DNA of 64,000 nucleotides, taken from the NCBI GenBank assembly GCA_965200875.1, contig OZ241456.1, positions 1,241,159 to 1,305,158 of the forward strand, read 5' to 3'. Shown in pieces: positions 8,976 through 22,244 of the stretch (position 1 is the stretch's first letter; each line of letters starts with the position of its first letter). The translations under genes and the position numbers were made by a program. The notes below the pieces were generated by a model. The model searched no databases, was not told the origin of the DNA, and saw nothing but the letters and a program-made list of their open reading frames with translations. This stretch comes from Bdellovibrionales bacterium (GTDB lineage: Bacteria > Bdellovibrionota > Bdellovibrionia > Bdellovibrionales > UBA1609).

Positions 8976-9575
8976 CTACTGCATATTTGAGATAGCAGGA
9001 GCTTCTTCAACAACAACAAAACCACTTATACCTTGTGAGGTTAAATAAGTCGCCAAGGCCGGATCAACTTTCGCAGAGGTTAAAATTACCCCAGTCAAAT
9101 CCGCCCCGGTCAGATTCGTATTACTCAAATCCGCCCCAGTCATATTCGCATTGACCAAATTCGCCTCGTACAAATTCGCACCTCGCAAACTCGCATTGAC
9201 CAAATACGCCACAGACAAATCCGCCATAGACAAATCCGCCATAGACAAAATTGCCCTTTCCAAATTCGCCCCGAACAAATTCGCCCCGGTCAGATTCGTA
9301 TTACTCAAATCCGCCCCAGTCAAATCCGCACTAAATAAATGTGCCACGGTCAAATTTGCATTACGCAAATTCGCATCGATCAAATTCGCATGACTCAAAA
9401 TTGCATAAGACATATTCTCCTCTATCAAATCCGCTCCGCGCAAATCGCATTTATAATTTCCGGGAGTATAGATATAATCTCGATAATTATTAATATTACA
9501 GGTAGACTCAGACTCATTCTGTCCATAGCTCAAAGCACCTAAGCTTAAAAATAGTAAAGTAATTATTATTTTCAT
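8976..9575 (-). CDS. secreted pentapeptide-repeat protein
   Basis: 199 aa with a signal peptide, CNINNYRDYI...C, about 25 pentapeptide repeats, and the C-terminal AKVDPALATYLTSQGISGFVVVEE. Confidence 0.75.
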   Translation of the reverse strand: MKIIITLLFLSLGALSYGQNESESTCNINNYRDYIYTPGNYKCDLRGADLIEENMSYAILSHANLIDANLRNANLTVAHLFSADLTGADLSNTNLTGANLFGANLERAILSMADLSMADLSVAYLVNASLRGANLYEANLVNANMTGADLSNTNLTGADLTGVILTSAKVDPALATYLTSQGISGFVVVEEAPAISNMQ

Positions 9576-9904: not shown

Positions 9905-10819
9905 TTAGAAAAATTTTACTAGAGGTGCTTCAACAACAACAAAACCACTTACACCCTGTGCTTCTAAATATTCCACTTGGTATGGTCTAACTTTCGCCCC
10001 GGTAAAATCTGCACCGCTCAAGTCCATTTCTTTAAAAATCGCTTCGTACAAAATTGCATTTGTAAAATTCGCATTGTTCACATTTGAATTTTGCAATCTC
10101 ATATTAAACAAATCCGCATTGGTAAAATCTGCACCGCTCAAATCTGCATTTACAAATCTTGCTCTAGGTAACTCCGCATCAGTTAAATTTGCACCGGACA
10201 AATTTGCCTCTTCAAAATTTGAATCTATAGCCTGTATATTTGACATATTAGCACCGGACAAATCTGCCTTATAAAAAGTAGAAAAATTCAAAATCGCACC
10301 GCTCAAATCCTTTTCACGCAAATCTGCACCGCTCAAATCACACCTAAATGGAACATCTGTCTTATATCTATATTCATCAAAATAATTATTAATACCACAT
10401 GAATAATTAGTTTTATATCTCTTCCGATCGGCTTGCGAGCCCCTAACACTAGTAGTAAAACCAGTAAGAAATGTAAAAAGTCTCGATATGAATCCTTGAT
10501 TATCTAAGTAATTACTGCTTACGCTATTAAGCTTTTGAATCTTGTACGCGTCCGGTTCTGTCGGCAGGCGCAGTTTAGTACCTTGAAAATTTGTACCTTG
10601 TAAATTTGCACCTTGTAAATTCGCATCTTTAAAAGTAGGGCTTTTTCTATACAAATCTATTCTTGCACCTTCATTTCTCCGGTCTTCTTCTGTACCATGA
10701 TCACCAGCTGATAATTCTCTCTTAGTGATTCCAGCCCCTCCTACAAAAAACAAGACAGCCGACAATAAAAAACCAAAACCAAAGCCAATTAATACATTTT
10801 TATTCATTATCTTTTTCAT
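9905..10819 (-). CDS. membrane-anchored/secreted pentapeptide-repeat protein (long form)
   Basis: 304 aa with an N-terminal TM/signal segment, two pentapeptide-repeat blocks, and the C-terminal cassette AKVRPYQVEYLEAQGVSGFVVVE. Confidence 0.75.
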   Translation of the reverse strand: MKKIMNKNVLIGFGFGFLLSAVLFFVGGAGITKRELSAGDHGTEEDRRNEGARIDLYRKSPTFKDANLQGANLQGTNFQGTKLRLPTEPDAYKIQKLNSVSSNYLDNQGFISRLFTFLTGFTTSVRGSQADRKRYKTNYSCGINNYFDEYRYKTDVPFRCDLSGADLREKDLSGAILNFSTFYKADLSGANMSNIQAIDSNFEEANLSGANLTDAELPRARFVNADLSGADFTNADLFNMRLQNSNVNNANFTNAILYEAIFKEMDLSGADFTGAKVRPYQVEYLEAQGVSGFVVVEAPLVKFF

Positions 10820-11781: not shown

Positions 11782-12246
11782 TCATGGTAACAACTTTGAA
11801 TGTTTTTTGTATTCTTGATATATTTTGCCTCGAGGTTTTTTTATTATCTCAGAGTTTGTAAAGTCTTCATGTAACTTTTTATCACCTCCACTGCGACTAA
11901 ATAACAATCTGGATTTTTCCTCCACTAAAGCTATAGCAATAATATGTGTATCGTTAGACTTCAATGTTACATTGTTTATAACTCTGTTATTATTATCAAT
12001 CTCCTTTTTCTTTTCTTTTGAAGAGGTTTGATAAGCTCCTCCACTGTTCTTTAACAGACTCACCATCTTAAGCATACAACTATCCTTTTGTATTTCCTCT
12101 AAACTCTTTTCATCATCACCATATACTAATATTAATGTCTGTTTTTGAATACATTGATGAACAGGTTTTGAATCTTCATGCTCTGGATCCACAAATTTAT
12201 GAAAAGCTTCCGCATCAACAAGTATTCCCTTTTTTGATAATCCCAT
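11782..12246 (-). CDS. small protein of unknown function, putative nuclease-like effector (PIN- or TOPRIM-like impression only)
   Basis: 154 aa, last gene of the operon. Acidic motifs GILVDAEAF, VYGDDEKS and SNDTHIIAIALVEE resemble PIN/TOPRIM active-site strands, but the fold was not verified. Confidence 0.5.
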   Translation of the reverse strand: MGLSKKGILVDAEAFHKFVDPEHEDSKPVHQCIQKQTLILVYGDDEKSLEEIQKDSCMLKMVSLLKNSGGAYQTSSKEKKKEIDNNNRVINNVTLKSNDTHIIAIALVEEKSRLLFSRSGGDKKLHEDFTNSEIIKKPRGKIYQEYKKHSKLLP

Positions 12247-12277: not shown

Positions 12278-13564
12278 TCAATCTTTCAAACCCAGAAGTT
12301 TGTAATCTTCTGATAGAAAAAAAGTCTGATAGCTGTCCGGTTGATTGTTCATGTTTCCATTTCGATCAATAGTGACAGGATAGATTTTTGCTTCTCCATT
12401 TTTCAGTTCAAAATAAAGTATTAAAAAATCTTCAGGTCGTAGCTTTTCTTCTTTGATTTCAATACGCGCCCTTTGAATGATATGATCACTATGAGTTTCA
12501 CAAATAAATTTATATTTTTCTTTGTGTTTATTTATCATATTAACCATAAGAGAGGCAAATTCAGCTTCCACTCTTGGGTGTAAATGAGTTTCTGGTTGTT
12601 GCATTAAAAAAGTGTTGTATTTTTCTGAATCTGAAATAAACAAATTTGCCAATACAGGTAAAAATTGGCTCACCCCATAACCAACATTTGTAATATCTGA
12701 TGTTAATTCGTCAACTGTTATTTTTATTGAAAATGGTGATTCACTATTATTCTTATCTAGGATATCTATATCCAAATTTTGAAAAAGTTTTGAATTTTTA
12801 CCGAATTTATTAAACTCTTCGCGGATTTCATTCCAGTTATTATTTTTCTTCATCTCTGCTAGTTTACATAAAACATAGGATGGATCTGTAGTTTTAACTT
12901 CTGTACGATCATATTGGACTTTCGGCTTTAAATGGATCGGATCAAGTAGATTACAAGATATATTTTTTAAATTTCCACTTTCCTTAAACCTTACAAGAGA
13001 AGTTACTTTTGAATGTAAAACTTTATTTTTTTCAAGCTCTTTTTTTAGCTCGTTACACAAAAAAGAAATTACTCCAAAAAAGTGAATAGAGAAATGAGCA
13101 GGTGTTGTAGCGCTATAACTCTTTTGTCCATTTACAAGAATCTCCATCATACTGTATTTCTTTAAGTTTACTTCTATACTGTTTTCAGAGCAATGTATTA
13201 AAATTTTCTCGCAAGATTTTCCATTTTTTATTGAATATTCCACATCCCAAATATTTTGTTCTCCAAGTTTTAAAGTGGCTCCTATGTTCACTATATCAGT
13301 ATTACCTTGGTTTCTCACAATATACTTGGACCCTCCAAGATATTTATAAGTTGTTCCTTTTAATAAATCTTCTATAGATGAAGGCTTTACTGGGTTGTCT
13401 GCATACAACAAATCATGGATAAGTTTATAAGCAGATAAGAATGTTGTTTTTCCTGTATTATTTTCACCGACAATGATAGTGATAGGACAAATTGCGGTTT
13501 TCGATTCAGGAAAACATCTTAAGTTTTTTATCCTTACTTCATTGATTTGCATAACTACCTCCAT
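12278..13564 (-). CDS. ABC/RecF-like ATPase (AAA_21/AAA_15-type, PtuA-/DUF3696-like)
   Basis: N-terminal INEVRIKNLRCF, Walker A GENNTGKTT, signature-like GYGVSQFLPVL, Walker B FLMQQPETHLHP and H-loop ETHSDHI. Its start overlaps the upstream stop (13555) by 10 nt, or an ATG at 13552 lies 2 nt after it. Confidence 0.75.
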   Translation of the reverse strand: MEVVMQINEVRIKNLRCFPESKTAICPITIIVGENNTGKTTFLSAYKLIHDLLYADNPVKPSSIEDLLKGTTYKYLGGSKYIVRNQGNTDIVNIGATLKLGEQNIWDVEYSIKNGKSCEKILIHCSENSIEVNLKKYSMMEILVNGQKSYSATTPAHFSIHFFGVISFLCNELKKELEKNKVLHSKVTSLVRFKESGNLKNISCNLLDPIHLKPKVQYDRTEVKTTDPSYVLCKLAEMKKNNNWNEIREEFNKFGKNSKLFQNLDIDILDKNNSESPFSIKITVDELTSDITNVGYGVSQFLPVLANLFISDSEKYNTFLMQQPETHLHPRVEAEFASLMVNMINKHKEKYKFICETHSDHIIQRARIEIKEEKLRPEDFLILYFELKNGEAKIYPVTIDRNGNMNNQPDSYQTFFLSEDYKLLGLKD

Positions 13565-14988
13565 AGTTTAAAAATCATATTCAATAAATTTCTTTTTTCA
13601 AATTTTACATCTTCTTGTAATACTTTAATACGACTGACATCCCCTTTTCCAACAATACTTAAAAAATAACACTCCCTATTGCAAGAGGATTCGTATTTAT
13701 TCATTTGCCCTGATAAAAAATTATATTCCACTCTATCTAATTTTGGCCACCAGTCCTTAAATAATAAAAAACGTATCATCATTAACACTTCTATACTGGA
13801 TAAATGTTGACTGAATGGAAAAACATTTTCATTTCCAAATCCTCGGCTTGAATGTAAATGTTCAATATAGGAAGGGTCTTCTAAAGAACCGTCAAGTTCC
13901 ATAGATACATCTGAAGTTGTATACTGCTTTCTGCATAACATACATTTGTGCCCATAAGTGACAATGTGAGCGTTCCATCGAGCATCAGAAAATTTATCAT
14001 GCCGTTTGTTCACTGCAATGCCTCCATCAATAACAGGTATTAAGTGAGCATAAGCTATATGATTTAAAATATCTCTCGCCAGTGGTTTATCTACACAACT
14101 GAAAATAATATCACAATCCAAAGCCGCTTTGAACGCAGACCTTGATTGTATAGGTTGTATGAGAGATTTTACTTTCACATTTTCATTCACAGAATGTTTC
14201 AGCATCTTGGTTCTAAAGAATTCAGTCTTGAATTTTCCAATATCTTTTTTGGTGGCATAAAGCAATCTGTCCAAATTATGCTCTTCAATTTTATCGTGAT
14301 CTATTAAAACAACATTTCCGATTCCTATTCTCGCCAAATTCTCAACAACCATTGAACCCACACTGCCCACACCTACGATCCCCACTGTCATCCTGTTGAT
14401 TTTTAATTGCTCATCCAATCCCCAAGTTTCAATAGTCCTCTTTAAAATATTTTTATTTTGAAATGTACTATATGCCTGCTCATTAAATGTAACTTTTAAA
14501 CAACTTCCAATTACTTTCACTTTATTACACCAAAATCGCTTGAATGCTCTGTCCTTCTGTTTTATCCAAAATCTGGCACTCCAACTTTCATCTGTACCTA
14601 GTGTTAAACCAACCAAAGGCATATTTGTGCTGTTAGCAGGTGATGCTATGCGATCTTTTTCCGCAATAATATCCGGTCCACTCATATCCTGCCATCCCTC
14701 TGTTGGATGACTATGCATAAAAGCAAGTCCCGCTTTCTTTTTTATAGCTATTCGTAATGAACGAGCTAAAAATTGTGGTAGAAAACTTGTATTGCCATGA
14801 AGTTCCCGTTCATCTTCTTCAGGGAGAATAATCTCAGAGATAAGAGCTGTTGTCTTACTCATACCATTACAAGGATACCAAAGCGCGAAACATAACTCTT
14901 CCTGATGCTCATTTTGCTTAAAATGAGACAACAAATGGTTGCAGGCAATGCTGTGAGCTTTTTCTGTTAAAGTAACTTCATATTTCAT
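13555..14988 (-). CDS. JAB/JAMM metallopeptidase fused to a ThiF/E1-like adenylyltransferase
   Basis: JAMM elements E...FMHSHPTEGWQDMSGPD (HxH-x8-S-xx-D). Rossmann motif VGIVGVGSVGSMVVENLARIGIGNVVLIDHDKIEEHNLDR. Cys pairs CMLC and CNREC. The ATG at 14988 overlaps the E2-like stop as ATGA. Confidence 0.8.
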   Translation of the reverse strand: MKYEVTLTEKAHSIACNHLLSHFKQNEHQEELCFALWYPCNGMSKTTALISEIILPEEDERELHGNTSFLPQFLARSLRIAIKKKAGLAFMHSHPTEGWQDMSGPDIIAEKDRIASPANSTNMPLVGLTLGTDESWSARFWIKQKDRAFKRFWCNKVKVIGSCLKVTFNEQAYSTFQNKNILKRTIETWGLDEQLKINRMTVGIVGVGSVGSMVVENLARIGIGNVVLIDHDKIEEHNLDRLLYATKKDIGKFKTEFFRTKMLKHSVNENVKVKSLIQPIQSRSAFKAALDCDIIFSCVDKPLARDILNHIAYAHLIPVIDGGIAVNKRHDKFSDARWNAHIVTYGHKCMLCRKQYTTSDVSMELDGSLEDPSYIEHLHSSRGFGNENVFPFSQHLSSIEVLMMIRFLLFKDWWPKLDRVEYNFLSGQMNKYESSCNRECYFLSIVGKGDVSRIKVLQEDVKFEKRNLLNMIFKLWR

Positions 14989-15407
14989 AAGTGCTTCCAA
15001 AAATTTCTTAAATGAGACTCAAAAAAGGTATGCAAACTTTTTTTTGAATTATCCAAGCCATCCCATATATCTTGAGGTGGACGACTAAGTGTCATCCAGT
15101 TTTCTCCACTATGTTCATACTGTTCATGTATCTGACCTATTTTTTGTATTTCCTCTTCACTAAATTCCTCTGTTTTTAAATGTATAAAATGAGGTGGTAA
15201 TCTTGGATAATCACTTAGTGGCAGTTCTATACCTATTGTGATTTTCTTCTTCTCTAGGGAACCACAGGGAATGACATACTTAAATACACATAGGTAACCA
15301 TCTCTTTTTGAAGATAAGTTCCGGTTTTTCATATCTTGTATCTGCTGTAACTCACAAGAGAGAATCTTTTTTATTTCTTTTTGGATTTGATTCGTTAAAT
15401 TTTCCAC
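14985..15407 (-). CDS. E2/UBC-like protein lacking the canonical catalytic Cys position
   Basis: 140 aa. SDYPRLPPHFIHL matches the E2 YPxxPPxxxF core. There is no Cys downstream of it (only C18, C40 and C48 upstream). GTG start lies 4 nt after the upstream stop. Confidence 0.6.
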   Translation of the reverse strand: MENLTNQIQKEIKKILSCELQQIQDMKNRNLSSKRDGYLCVFKYVIPCGSLEKKKITIGIELPLSDYPRLPPHFIHLKTEEFSEEEIQKIGQIHEQYEHSGENWMTLSRPPQDIWDGLDNSKKSLHTFFESHLRNFWKHL

Positions 15408-15411
15408 TGAA

Positions 15412-15927
15412 TTATGCTACAGGAGTTGGTCCAGAAGACAGAGCTAAAAACTCATCTCCAGTTTGAACGGTTATTTCTTCGTGCGAGTTTGTATAATCTG
15501 TGTTTGTTTTGGCATTAAATAGTTTGAATTTATCCACCGGAACAAATTTTGCTTTTTCAAGTATTTGAGTAACTGTCAGCTTATTATCTGAAGCTGAAAT
15601 TTCTTGTTTTTCCCCATTGACAGTATAATATATTTTTACATCCTGTATTTTATGTTCAATGGAAAATACATCATCATTTTTAATTTCCAACTTTTTATGC
15701 AAGTCATCCTTTGCTGGTCCATTCCATACTTCCTGTTTTTTATCTCCTTGAATTTTAAAAATAACATAAGCAGGATAAGGTTCCTGTTTCTGTCCAAGCT
15801 CTAAAATATCTTTAGGAGTTATAAAAGACTCAGACCATAGCTTTTCTTGACCATCTATTTTTATATGTATTTCAACCATACCAACAACACCAATGTATTT
15901 TTTCAGAGACTTCTGCCAATTTTCCAT
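15412..15927 (-). CDS. tandem beta-grasp (multi-ubiquitin-like) protein
   Basis: 171 aa with two similar modules (IHIKIDGQEKLWSESFITPKDILELG... and VKIYYTVNGEKQEISASDNKLTVTQILEKA...ITVQTGDEFLAL). It ends ...SSGPTPVA. It is the first gene of an operon with the E2-like and E1/JAB genes. Confidence 0.6.
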   Translation of the reverse strand: MENWQKSLKKYIGVVGMVEIHIKIDGQEKLWSESFITPKDILELGQKQEPYPAYVIFKIQGDKKQEVWNGPAKDDLHKKLEIKNDDVFSIEHKIQDVKIYYTVNGEKQEISASDNKLTVTQILEKAKFVPVDKFKLFNAKTNTDYTNSHEEITVQTGDEFLALSSGPTPVA

Positions 15928-16139: not shown

Positions 16140-17060
16140 TTAAGAAGGAGGCGGTTTTTTAACTTCCACCTGAAGAGGTGTTCTAAAGTGCAGATCTTTT
16201 TGAGGAAAAGCAATTACTATACCATGTTCTCTAAATAGCTCATCTATGCGAAAACGAATATCACTGGGTATTTTTTTTAACTCCATAATGTGTTGCACAC
16301 GTACCCAAAAAGAAACAGAAAAATCCAAAGAATTATTGCCAAACTCCTTAAAAAACACAATAGGATTTGGAGATTTTAGAACCATTTTATGTTCGGTTAC
16401 GGCTCGCAAAAGCAATTTCTCCACTTGTCGGGTGGGAGAACCATAAATAACCCCCACATTTACCCTTCTTCTCACTACAGAATCTGAGAGTGTCCAATTC
16501 AAAATATTTTTCTCCAAAAAAGAGCTGTTAGGAACTACAATTTGAGTATTGTCTATGGATTTGATTCGGGTGGCCCGGGCACCAATTCGCTCCACTTCTC
16601 CTGTCAGACCTTCCACTTCCACTATATCCCCTGCCCGGATGGGTTGCTCCAAAATCACAATCAAACCACTGATAAAGTTATTCACAATATTTTGAGAACC
16701 AAGACCAATACCCACAGCCAGAGCACCACCAATTACCGTAAAAATGGTAATAGGAATATTTAAAAGCCTCATGGTAAAGAGACAGAGAATTATCATGGAA
16801 AAATAAAGTGTAAAAGTGGAGATAGCGTGCCCGACTGACTCCTGAACATCCAGTTTTCTTAAAATAATCCTCTCAAGCTGGCGCGTCAGCTGGCGCAGTA
16901 TAAAATAACCAACAATAAGGAGAGTGATACCAATGATGAGATCGCCTAAAGTAATATGATTTTTTCCTATTTTAAACAAATGCGAGTTCCAGATTCCGGG
17001 CACTTTTGCCCATATATCTGTAATAATAAGATCTATTTGATACCAAATTGCTTTCCACAT
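16140..17060 (-). CDS. mechanosensitive ion channel, MscS family
   Basis: TM helices plus the conserved MscS beta domain (IRAGDIVEVEGLTGEVERIGARATRIKSIDNTQIVVPNS). The track ORF extends to 17216, but I prefer the ATG at 17060 (MWKAIWYQ). Confidence 0.8.
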   Translation of the reverse strand: MWKAIWYQIDLIITDIWAKVPGIWNSHLFKIGKNHITLGDLIIGITLLIVGYFILRQLTRQLERIILRKLDVQESVGHAISTFTLYFSMIILCLFTMRLLNIPITIFTVIGGALAVGIGLGSQNIVNNFISGLIVILEQPIRAGDIVEVEGLTGEVERIGARATRIKSIDNTQIVVPNSSFLEKNILNWTLSDSVVRRRVNVGVIYGSPTRQVEKLLLRAVTEHKMVLKSPNPIVFFKEFGNNSLDFSVSFWVRVQHIMELKKIPSDIRFRIDELFREHGIVIAFPQKDLHFRTPLQVEVKKPPPS

Positions 17061-17200
17061 AATACCTTTATGTTGGAAATAAGATCGGCACAGGTCAAGA
17101 ATAATATGTTCAATCCGCCAGAAAAAACTACTTGTCTCCTCCCGAAAAATTTTTTGACTTATACCTCTCCCCTCACACGAGGTTCTGTTTATGGAATTTT

Positions 17201-17246
17201 GTAATAACCTTGGCAATGGTCTTGTAATAACCTTGGCAATGGTCTT
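17201..17246. repeat. perfect 23-bp tandem duplication in the mscS/sucA divergent intergenic region
   Basis: gtaataaccttggcaatggtctt occurs twice. A second 18-bp near-duplication (aggaagtctggaa...) lies at 17321-17356. Confidence 0.8.
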
Positions 17247-20355: not shown

Positions 20356-20431
20356 GACCCGCTAGCTCAGTTGGTAGAGCATCTCCCTTTTAAGGAGAGG
20401 GTCCTTGGTTCGAGCCCAAGGCGGGTCACCA
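20356..20431 (+). tRNA. tRNA-Lys (anticodon UUU), CCA encoded
   Basis: Acceptor stem gacccgc/gcgggtc, D-loop agctcagttggtagagc, anticodon arm tctcc-cTTTTaa-ggaga, and T-arm ggttcgagccc. Confidence 0.9.
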
Positions 20432-20434
20432 CTA

Positions 20435-20509
20435 GTTCCCTTCGTCTAGCGGTCAGGATGTCACCCTTTCACGGTGAAGACACGGGTTCGATTCCCGTAG
20501 GGAACGCCA
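20435..20509 (+). tRNA. tRNA-Glu (anticodon UUC), CCA encoded
   Basis: Acceptor stem gttccct/agggaac, anticodon arm tcacc-cTTTCac-ggtga, and T-arm gggttcgattccc. Confidence 0.9.
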
Positions 20510-20666: not shown

Positions 20667-20794
20667 GGAAGTAGCTCGTGAAAAAACCTTTCCTAAACTG
20701 AAAGAATCTCTAAGAGCTTTCAGTCCCTTGAAAACGGGAATCTTGTTGAATTTTAGGGAAATGTTCAAAATAAATAACAGGCAGGTTGTATATA

Positions 20795-21038
20795 ATGATG
20801 AAAAATAAAATTAATCAACTTTCTTTTTTTGAAGAAACAAAATTATCGAATCATCTCTTCAAGAAATTTGAAGAGATCCATAATTATATATATGCCAATG
20901 AGGGGCTATCTGAACAACAAGTTTTAGAGGAGATTATAAAAATTTTATTTATAAAGTTTTATGATGAACAAAAAAATAGTGACAGGTTTTACATTTCAAA
21001 AACAGATTTTTTAAATATAAATTCCAAAAAAACTGGAG
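20795..21038 (+). pseudogene. N-terminal fragment of an N6-adenine DNA methyltransferase (type I/IIG-like), cut by IS3
   Basis: FEEIHNYIYANEGLSEQQVLEEIIKILFIKFYDEQ resembles the MTase N-terminal helical domain. The reading frame runs into the IS end at 21039. Confidence 0.55.
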
Positions 21039-21054
21039 TGGCCCCTATTTTTGG

Positions 21055-21942
21055 CTACCTCATTTGTGTTGATTTAATATACTCCACAGGTGACTTCATG
21101 CCAAGTGCTGAATGGGGAGCTTTATGGTTATAATCATATATCCATTCTTTTAATAATTTCATAGTGTCTTCAGCACAGGAGCAGTCATTCACATACACAT
21201 AATCTCGTTTTATTGTCTTTACAAAAGCCTCTGCCATACCATTACTCTCTGGACTGTAAGCCCTCGTAAAACAAGGCTTTAAACCCAGCTGGCGGGCCAA
21301 TACCTGCACATTATACGCTCTGTAAATACTCCCTCGATCCGATAAAAATTCAATCTCTCTATTTGTTCGACAAGCATCAAATCGCCCTTCTACAGCACTA
21401 ATCATCAAACCCTGTATGTCTTCTTCTGATAAAAGAGGCTTTAACGACGCCGTAAAGCTTAAAATCTCCCTGTCACATGTGTCTAACACAAAAGAAACAT
21501 ACACCTTCTCTCCATTAAAACAATGAATTTCAAAACAATCAGAACACCACCTCGTATTGGAATACAATGTCATCACTTTTCCTGTACTCTTATGCCCTTC
21601 CCTTCTGCTGACAGCTTTGGGTAACAAAAGGCCATTTTCTTTCATTACACGATAAATACGCTTCTTATTATACTTGCTTAAACCCTTTAAAACCCTCTCC
21701 TTGTTGTAAAGAGCCGTTACACGCTTGTAACCATAAGTGGGACGATCCTTTATCACAGCTCTTATCCCTGATAAAATTTGCTTATCTTTATCCTTTATCT
21801 TCATCTTAACACTTCTCCTCTCACTCACTTTGTAAAGAGACTTTGGATGAATCCCTATTAACTCACAAAATCTTTTTTTACAGCAGATCGCTGAGCAGTG
21901 GATGATAAACTCTTTTGCAAATTCAGTTTTTCTTCCCTCCAC
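21055..21942 (-). CDS. IS3 transposase OrfB (DDE/rve integrase core), expressed by -1 frameshift as OrfAB
   Basis: rve-type motifs (WCSDCFEI...DRGSIYRA...SPESNGMAEAF). The slippery run A8-G lies at 21943-21950 (minus strand ATGAAAAAAAAGTGG). Confidence 0.85.
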   Translation of the reverse strand: MEGRKTEFAKEFIIHCSAICCKKRFCELIGIHPKSLYKVSERRSVKMKIKDKDKQILSGIRAVIKDRPTYGYKRVTALYNKERVLKGLSKYNKKRIYRVMKENGLLLPKAVSRREGHKSTGKVMTLYSNTRWCSDCFEIHCFNGEKVYVSFVLDTCDREILSFTASLKPLLSEEDIQGLMISAVEGRFDACRTNREIEFLSDRGSIYRAYNVQVLARQLGLKPCFTRAYSPESNGMAEAFVKTIKRDYVYVNDCSCAEDTMKLLKEWIYDYNHKAPHSALGMKSPVEYIKSTQMR

Positions 21943-22244
21943 TTTTTTTTCATAAACTCATTCCATTGCTTAAGAGTGGTGATATCCAATGCTTGATCAG
22001 CTACAGTATGCTTTAAACGAGAGTTCTCCACCTTTAAACGATTTATCTCTAAAAGCAATTCCTCTTGGTCTAATCCTGTTGCTTTCTTTTCTCTGCGCAT
22101 TTTCTCTCTCCTCCATTGATAAATAGTTGCGGCTTGAATCTGATACTTCCGTGATAATTCGGAAATACTGAGACCACCTTGAAAATGCTCTGAAAGTATC
22201 AAAAATCTTTGATTTTTTGAAATCTTTTTGGAAAATCTATCCAT
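21858..22244 (-). CDS. IS3 transposase OrfA (HTH)
   Basis: 128 aa with an HTH (LSISELSRKYQIQAATIYQWRRE) and a leucine-zipper-like region. It ends in the frameshift window. Confidence 0.85.
   Translation of the reverse strand: MDRFSKKISKNQRFLILSEHFQGGLSISELSRKYQIQAATIYQWRREKMRREKKATGLDQEELLLEINRLKVENSRLKHTVADQALDITTLKQWNEFMKKKWREEKLNLQKSLSSTAQRSAVKKDFVS

Follow-up and report, generated by a model that had tools for sequence, protein, structure and literature searches.

A probable BubB-type serine E2 in a cysteine-free ubiquitin-like conjugation cassette of Bdellovibrionales

Results

The E2-like protein lacks a cysteine after its conserved core

The window analysed here is a 64,000-nucleotide stretch of contig OZ241456.1 (positions 1,241,159 to 1,305,158) from the Bdellovibrionales bacterium assembly GCA_965200875.1. 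Its minus strand carries a cassette of five tightly packed genes encoding, in order, a ubiquitin-like protein (Ubl), an E2-like protein, a fusion of a JAB peptidase with an E1 (JAB-E1), an NsnB-like ABC ATPase and a PIN-like protein. The E2 gene starts 4 nucleotides past the Ubl stop codon, and its own TGA shares bases with the E1 start codon in the sequence ATGA. The same five-gene order is present in nine other Bdellovibrionales chromosomes or contigs assembled from metagenomes (metagenome-assembled genomes, MAGs), giving 10 genomes in all. The E2-like protein is the subject of this study. An earlier reading of the sequence, referred to below as the original prediction, had described it as a ubiquitin-conjugating (UBC) fold without a cysteine where the catalytic residue should lie. 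Its principal features are as follows.

15407..14985, minus strand: E2-like open reading frame of 140 amino acids with a GTG start and a TGA stop; BubB-like and cysteine-free after the YPxxPP core.
15189..15209, minus strand: YPRLPPH motif, E2 residues 67–73, between strands 3 and 4 of the UBC-like fold.
15075..15086, minus strand: Ser108-Arg-Pro-Pro of the E2, with the Ser108 codon AGT at 15084–15086; Ser108 is the final residue of strand 102–108, and a short helix comes next.

The core lies within residues 65–77 (SDYPRLPPHFIHL), and the UBC signature YPxxPP is readily recognised there as YPRLPPH. The segment that follows, residues 78–111 (KTEEFSEEEIQKIGQIHEQYEHSGENWMTLSRPP), occupies the position expected for HPN...C and holds no cysteine at all, as had been claimed; nor is an HPN motif present in the E2 sequence. 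C18, C40 and C48 are the sole cysteines of the protein and all precede the core, again in agreement with the original prediction, with none after residue 48.

Close homologues of the E2 number 19, of which 15 were aligned with the window protein at 58–85 % identity. A profile of the close homologues searched against 1.84 billion representative proteins yielded 53 relatives. The family alignment used throughout holds 42 sequences, 26 of them distant members at 21–31 % identity, and 12 further matches were checked separately. Only four columns of the 42-sequence alignment are invariant: Pro72, His73, Ser108 and Trp115. Ser108 is kept in all 54 relatives (the alignment plus the 12 further matches), spanning 21–85 % identity, and among these 54 no conserved cysteine follows the YPxxPP core. 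C18, C40 and C48 are at least 90 % conserved among 16 close orthologues and are confined to the Bdellovibrionales clade, other residues or gaps standing in their place elsewhere in the 42-sequence alignment. The homologue alignment that had been proposed as a means of finding invariant serine, cysteine or histidine residues points to Ser108 and His73, and to no cysteine. The absence of cysteine from this segment is a conserved feature and not a matter of chance.

Structure prediction, also suggested at the outset, returned a UBC-like topology. The AlphaFold2 model, built on the 42-sequence alignment, has a predicted local distance difference test score (pLDDT) of 94.2 and a predicted TM-score of 0.87. 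It comprises a helix (2–12) and four strands (18–25, 38–45, 55–62 and 74–78), then a short helix (84–90), a beta-hairpin (95–99/102–108), a second short helix (112–115) and a C-terminal helix (125–138). Ser108 closes the second strand of the hairpin and is followed by a short helix, a position that in E2s belongs to the catalytic residue. C18 lies at the start of strand 1, C40 within strand 2 and C48 just past strand 2. By hhalign, the E2 matches four manually entered canonical E2 sequences with 74 % probability (E 2.8e-5); YPRLPP falls on YPFKPP and the alignment ends after strand 4. A UBC-like N-terminal half is supported by the model and by this match, and the concern that the protein might not adopt a UBC-like fold is not borne out for this half.

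Family comparison places Ser108 on the catalytic serine of BubB

Bub operons function without catalytic cysteines (Ye, Gong, Chambers & Corbett, bioRxiv 10.1101/2024.11.21.623953; PDB 9ea4, 9eae, 9eav). The same study describes an invariant Ser333 with His335 and Asp299 in Type I BubB, Ser106 with Lys and His in Type II BubBD, and a crossover-loop tyrosine, Tyr370, in the BubCD E1; conjugation is abolished by BubB S333A/H335A, BubBD S106A and BubCD Y370F. The original prediction had pointed to serine oxyester chemistry for the Bub pathway, which is correct.

Canonical BubB was taken from an operon of the Paracoccus plasmid pMARC5 (multiubiquitin, E2/UBC, ThiF and DUF6527), whose BubB matches Citrobacter BubB (PDB 9eae_C) with E 1e-12. 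The resulting family comprises 20 aligned sequences, each with a PF14462 annotation; its PDMF and WQRWSRH motifs are invariant, and the numbering of D299, S333 and H335 was confirmed by an Enterobacter plasmid homologue. When the 42-sequence E2 family is compared with this family by hhalign, the match has 95.6 % probability (E 1.2e-8). Ser108-Arg109 aligns with the serine of BubB WSRH and its following arginine, W..xS108RPP lying on WQRWS(333)RH(335), so that Ser108 occupies the column of the catalytic Ser333 of Citrobacter BubB. Upstream, YPxxPPH73 aligns with YPxxxPD(299) and His73 falls in the Asp299 column. The register is identical when single BubB sequences are used. Against a single Citrobacter-type BubB the hhalign probability is only 8.6 %, with the register unchanged, which is why comparison of family with family was needed. 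Canonical BubB itself reaches 2 % against canonical UBCs. The Pfam model Prok-E2_E is matched by 12 of the 42 E2 family members (best E 1.6e-7).

Two relatives carry mixed motifs. One (P0066) has PPH together with S-R-Q-H, and a Clavibacter plasmid E2 (locus L014, 4622–4999) has PPH with H-S-R-D. From their motifs, both look like intermediate steps between the PD...SRH of canonical BubB and the PPH...SRPP of the window type. The window E2 is best read from these alignments as a divergent BubB-type serine E2 in which the surroundings of the active site have been rewired.

The partner E1 and Ubl resemble Bub components

The genes on either side of the E2 encode the following features, the E1 residues being numbered from the TTG at 15000.

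13555..15000, minus strand: JAB/JAMM peptidase-E1 (ThiF) fusion, BubCD homologue; 481 amino acids from the TTG at 15000, or 477 from the probable ATG at 14988.
13867..13869, minus strand: Tyr378 of the E1 (Tyr374 from the ATG at 14988), in the crossover loop at about residues 357–395.
13669–13683 and 13933–13944, minus strand: CxxC...CxxxC set of the E1 (C353, C356, C440 and C444), invariant in the clade.
15412..15927, minus strand: Ubl, BubA-like, with two predicted beta-grasp halves; open reading frame of 171 amino acids, the start being probably Met17 at 15879, as in orthologues.

The E1 matches Pfam ThiF (E 3e-34), and its best PDB sequence match is Citrobacter BubCD (9ea4, E 3e-23). A profile of ten clade E1s aligned by hhalign with canonical BubCD, here the protein of an Enterobacter IncHI2 plasmid with the numbering of the Citrobacter protein, gives 99.85 % probability over 391 columns (E 1e-30). 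The JAMM residues E34/E35, H96-S-H98, S107 and D110 are intact (14671–14715), with E35 equivalent to BubCD E28 and HSH to HSH; the adenylation arginine R245 corresponds to R227, and a Gly-rich ATP loop spans residues 207–215. Tyr378 is invariant in 10 E1s at identities down to 33 %, and the alignment of the ten clade E1s has no cysteine in the crossover loop. Tyr378 falls on the catalytic Tyr370 of BubCD both by hhalign and in an alignment where two further clade E1s replace one close orthologue. The C-terminal third of the E1, searched alone against the PDB, gave no match. The CxxC...CxxxC set is also present in Paracoccus BubCD and is absent from the Citrobacter and Enterobacter proteins; it is probably a structural zinc site as in MoeB/ThiF-type E1s.

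The Ubl ends in LALSSG166 followed by PTPVA and the stop codon, with Gly166 at 15430–15432 and the five-residue tail at 15415–15429; SGPTPVA is invariant in four Ubl orthologues. Three Ubl-E2 fusion proteins (P0029, P0035 and P0036) carry an E2 of the window type, and by hhalign the Ubl orthologues match the Ubl parts of such fusions, together with a Clavibacter multiubiquitin protein, with 99 % probability (E 7e-18). The SSG-PTPVA end of the Ubl is aligned with VG(R/K)TPVA, the linker of the fusions. Because the tail matches the linker, JAB cleavage after Gly166 is predicted, with Gly166 as the mature C-terminus and the PTPVA tail as the JAB substrate. The shared linker suggests that Ubl and E2 can pass between split and fused states, both retaining the JAB cleavage site. 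The Pfam Multi_ubiq match of the Ubl is weak (E 0.02) and Enterobacter BubA gave no significant hhalign match to the window Ubl; it was the clade's own fusions that provided the link for the Ubl. A Ubl-E2 fusion made in the window itself by frameshifting or read-through was also weighed and rejected: the two frames differ, a TAA lies between them, and in orthologues the two are separate coupled genes.

BubE is not found in the cassette or related loci

All Bub operons are stated to encode BubE, a DUF6527 serine protease, and the published catalogue was assembled from DUF6527-containing operons (bioRxiv 10.1101/2024.11.21.623953); the present clade lies outside that catalogue because it was built in this way. 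DUF6527 had no match among the cassette proteins and their neighbours, while Paracoccus BubE, as positive control, scored E 2.6e-24. Likewise, neither the 64-kb window nor any of 20 related loci gave a tblastn match to BubE. Four distant members of the E2 clade, on two Dehalococcoidia MAGs, an Acidimicrobiia MAG and the Clavibacter plasmid, had no DUF6527 gene detected past their Ubl-E2-E1 core on the downstream side. Of two other metagenome contigs, one stops about 0.6 kb past the E1 gene and one inside it, and both are uninformative on downstream genes. With no BubE found, either the JAB domain would also deconjugate or the modification would not be reversed.

CapH/CapP regulators have been reported as associated with Bub operons (bioRxiv 10.1101/2024.11.21.623953). 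At two distant loci (L010, 5235–6232; L019, 219–1242) a CapH/CapP-like pair, consisting of a helix-turn-helix (HTH) protein and an M78/ImmA-type metallopeptidase, adjoins the core on its upstream side. The window cassette has no HTH and M78 pair; a gene for an MscS-type channel (16140–17216) lies upstream of it.

An ATPase-PIN pair follows the conjugation genes

The last two genes of the cassette encode the following proteins.

12278..13564, minus strand: NsnB-like ABC ATPase of 428 amino acids (AAA_15/AAA_21), overlapping the E1 gene at its end; the Walker A motif GENNTGKT occupies residues 33–40.
11782..12246, minus strand: PIN-like protein of 154 amino acids, with D11, E51, D99 and D128 invariant in an alignment of 25 homologues.

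Besides AAA_15/AAA_21, the ATPase has a weak C-terminal Pfam match to DUF3696, and it matches the PADLOC models NsnB (E 1e-37) and PDC-M55A (E 1e-31). The PIN-like protein has no Pfam, NCBIfam or PADLOC match. Its AlphaFold2 model (pLDDT 91.9) has VapC PIN toxins as top Foldseek matches (probability 1.00–0.97, E 1.7e-3 to 8e-3), and on this model the 154-amino-acid protein is a putative nuclease effector. It was also considered as an analogue of BubE; this was rejected on account of its PIN-like fold, its D-E-D-D residues and its occurrence elsewhere with the ATPase alone. At two other loci (L021 and L022) distant PIN-like homologues immediately follow an AAA_15/21 ATPase, and the vicinity holds neither Ubl nor E2 nor E1 genes. 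Since the pair occurs elsewhere without conjugation genes, it is an independent two-gene module, added to the conjugation core within the Bdellovibrionales lineage. We propose that in this clade the three-gene core is co-transcribed with the ATPase and PIN-like genes. Together the two proteins probably serve a defence system as its sensor or its effector arm, whether coupled to the conjugation core or merely co-inherited with it.

The cassette as a whole looks like an acquired island. Its flanks differ among the three loci examined for gene content. Its G+C content is mostly 31–33 %, with a part of the E1 gene reaching about 37 %, against roughly 36–43 % in the flanks. Genes for tRNA-Lys(UUU) and tRNA-Glu(UUC) lie on the plus strand at 20356–20509, about 4.4 kb from the cassette. 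After the tRNAs, at 20786–22244, a short open reading frame resembling a DNA-methylase N-terminus and a two-frame element resembling an IS3-type transposase were recognised by eye. Two minus-strand open reading frames, 8976–9575 and 9905–10819, appear by eye to encode pentapeptide-type repeats (A(D/N)LxG...) with N-terminal hydrophobic segments.

Discussion

The position of Ser108 on the BubB serine, its conservation and the company of a BubCD-like E1 and a BubA-like Ubl make it probable that the 140-amino-acid protein serves as E2 in a Ubl conjugation cassette of Bub type that works without cysteine. The chemistry of such a cassette is inferred from homology. The JAB domain of the JAB-E1 fusion would initially remove the PTPVA tail of the Ubl to expose Gly166, which the E1 domain would then adenylate with ATP. 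The Ubl would be taken up by Tyr378 in the cysteine-free crossover loop as a tyrosine oxyester and passed to Ser108 of the E2 as a serine oxyester, which a target lysine would finally attack. The invariant His73 is probably the general base, replacing the role played by His335 and Asp299 in Citrobacter BubB.

Several observations weigh against this reading. The histidine that accompanies the serine in Type I Bub is gone, Pro110 standing in place of His335. The window E2 itself has no PF14462 match at E ≤0.1 and reaches no Pfam E2 model. Searches of PDB sequences with two E2 profiles, A1 and A2 (the latter from a diverse alignment), did not retrieve BubB, and a Foldseek search of the PDB with the E2 model gave no match at E ≤0.001, with BubB absent from the first 50. 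Some distant Ubls of the clade lack a glycine at the predicted cleavage site. The first 9-sequence MAFFT alignment placed Tyr378 on BubCD Tyr362 instead of Tyr370; because of this smaller alignment the equivalence of Tyr378 with Tyr370, likely as it is, must be regarded as alignment-dependent.

Some of the evidence is what would be expected of a pseudo-E2 resembling ubiquitin E2 variant (UEV) or RWD domains, which would bind the Ubl or E1, or present the substrate, while the target attacked the tyrosine-bound Ubl on the E1 or the adenylate directly. The loss of the histidine two residues past the serine, required in Type I Bub, fits such a role. The sole Pfam match of the window E2 is RWD (E 0.03), a model also touched by 6 of the 42 relatives, and its best UBC-like Foldseek match is the non-catalytic UEV domain of Vps23; both count for a pseudo-E2 and against a catalytic one. 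The RWD match, however, stands at 15 bits, under the cut-off of 22.8. Ser108 is invariant in 54 relatives and lies in the column of the experimentally required BubB serine, His73 is equally invariant and the relay tyrosine of the E1 is kept. The original prediction had offered a UEV-like adaptor or the use of another nucleophile. With the serine invariant and the E1, JAB and Ubl partners intact, the former is disfavoured and we consider it unlikely; the latter, with Bub oxyester chemistry, is favoured by the placement of Ser108 on the Bub catalytic serine and by a BubCD-like E1 that keeps its tyrosine and has no loop cysteine.

A catalytic E2 could also employ a nucleophile other than Ser108, for example His73 as an acyl-imidazole, leaving Ser108 as a structural, oxyanion or acid-base partner. 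His73 matches Ser108 in invariance and is a novelty against canonical BubB, where aspartate fills the column; yet homology puts Ser108 on the residue whose mutation kills Bub conjugation, and we know of no E2 that uses histidine. We give this alternative somewhat less weight than a pseudo-E2. Least probable by far is a permuted active site built on C18, C40 or C48. The high conservation of these cysteines among close orthologues would speak for it, but they are absent in all distant relatives, lie far in sequence from the active-site loop of the model, and face an E1 whose relay loop has a tyrosine and no cysteine. The original prediction had allowed for one of them to be found at the active site, and their lack of conservation outside the clade argues against this.

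With Ser108 as the preferred nucleophile, what is new here appears to be an undescribed BubE-less branch of Bub, of His73/Ser108 type in its candidate active site and extended by an ATPase-PIN pair. To our knowledge Bub pathways are the only ubiquitin-like cascades without any catalytic cysteine. The clade keeps the relay of tyrosine in the E1 and serine in the E2 and swaps the residues around the serine, and would thus represent a natural experiment on the reactivity of serine E2s. The link, in one lineage, to an ATPase and putative nuclease of a type seen in phage defence could also give a first handle on what Bub-type conjugation controls. A broader proposal, which we put forward tentatively as a possibility that may well prove wrong, is that E2s of the PPH...SRPP kind with JAB-E1 and Ubl form a third, BubE-less oxyester type, in which a histidine recruited from another position of the fold serves the catalytic serine and which in Bdellovibrionales is wired to an NsnB-like ATPase and an active PIN nuclease. 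If this were true, conjugation of the Ubl would turn an abortive-infection nuclease on or off, or would tag the target of the nuclease.

Comparison with known systems

Type I Bub (Citrobacter BubAB/BubCD/BubE) is the closest point of comparison. Both systems have a JAB-E1 fusion with a cysteine-free crossover loop and a conserved tyrosine, a cysteine-free E2 with an invariant serine in the matching alignment column and arginine next to it, a multi-beta-grasp Ubl processed after glycine (fold and processing being predictions in the window), tightly coupled genes and surroundings suggestive of an acquired island; relatives of the window system share the fusion of Ubl with E2, linker included. 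The window system differs in that its E2 falls short of the Pfam Prok-E2_E model and has Pro110 for His335 and His73 for Asp299, its Ubl and E2 are separate genes, no BubE/DUF6527 was found, ATPase and PIN-like genes are additional, and its E1 carries a CxxC...CxxxC zinc-type motif absent in Citrobacter BubCD. Type II Bub (E. coli BubA/BubBD/BubE), compared by description only, likewise has a serine E2 site (S106) and a tyrosine in the E1 loop; its E2 and E1 are fused, it has no JAB peptidase and BubE is present. The residues beside the serine in Type II (Lys and His) differ from those of Type I, and catalytic surroundings therefore vary within Bub.

With canonical UBC E2s (such as UBE2D2), UEV and RWD domains the window E2 has in common a helix at the N-terminus, a meander of four strands and YPxxPP. 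It departs from canonical UBCs in lacking HPN and a catalytic cysteine some 20–25 residues past YPxxPP, in the helix and beta-hairpin inserted between strand 4 and the active-site position, and in missing the last two UBC helices. It departs from UEV and RWD domains in keeping an invariant nucleophile candidate and in not reaching the RWD cut-off. Cap2, the E2-E1 of Type II cyclic-oligonucleotide-based antiphage signalling systems (CBASS), and Bil likewise place bacterial E1/E2/JAB conjugation machinery in defence contexts, and the window E1 matches the PADLOC Cap2 'E1-E2' models (E 1e-18) through its adenylation domain only. Those systems rely on cysteine thioesters, what Cap2 conjugates is a CD-NTase instead of a Ubl, and the domain order is different.

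The downstream genes of the window invite comparison with Septu, PARIS and Gabija, which are also ABC ATPase-nuclease pairs, and above all with Menshen, in which NsnB has an AAA_15 and DUF3696 architecture and the PIN-like domains of NsnC are reported without the D-E-D-D set (PMC12065111). As in NsnB-NsnC, an AAA_15/DUF3696 ABC ATPase in the window is followed by a PIN-fold protein. The cassette is without an NsnA/DUF262 gene. Where NsnC combines an inactive PIN-like N-domain with an effector domain, the window protein consists of the PIN domain only and keeps its D-E-D-D residues, and its ATPase-PIN pair comes after a Ubl conjugation module.

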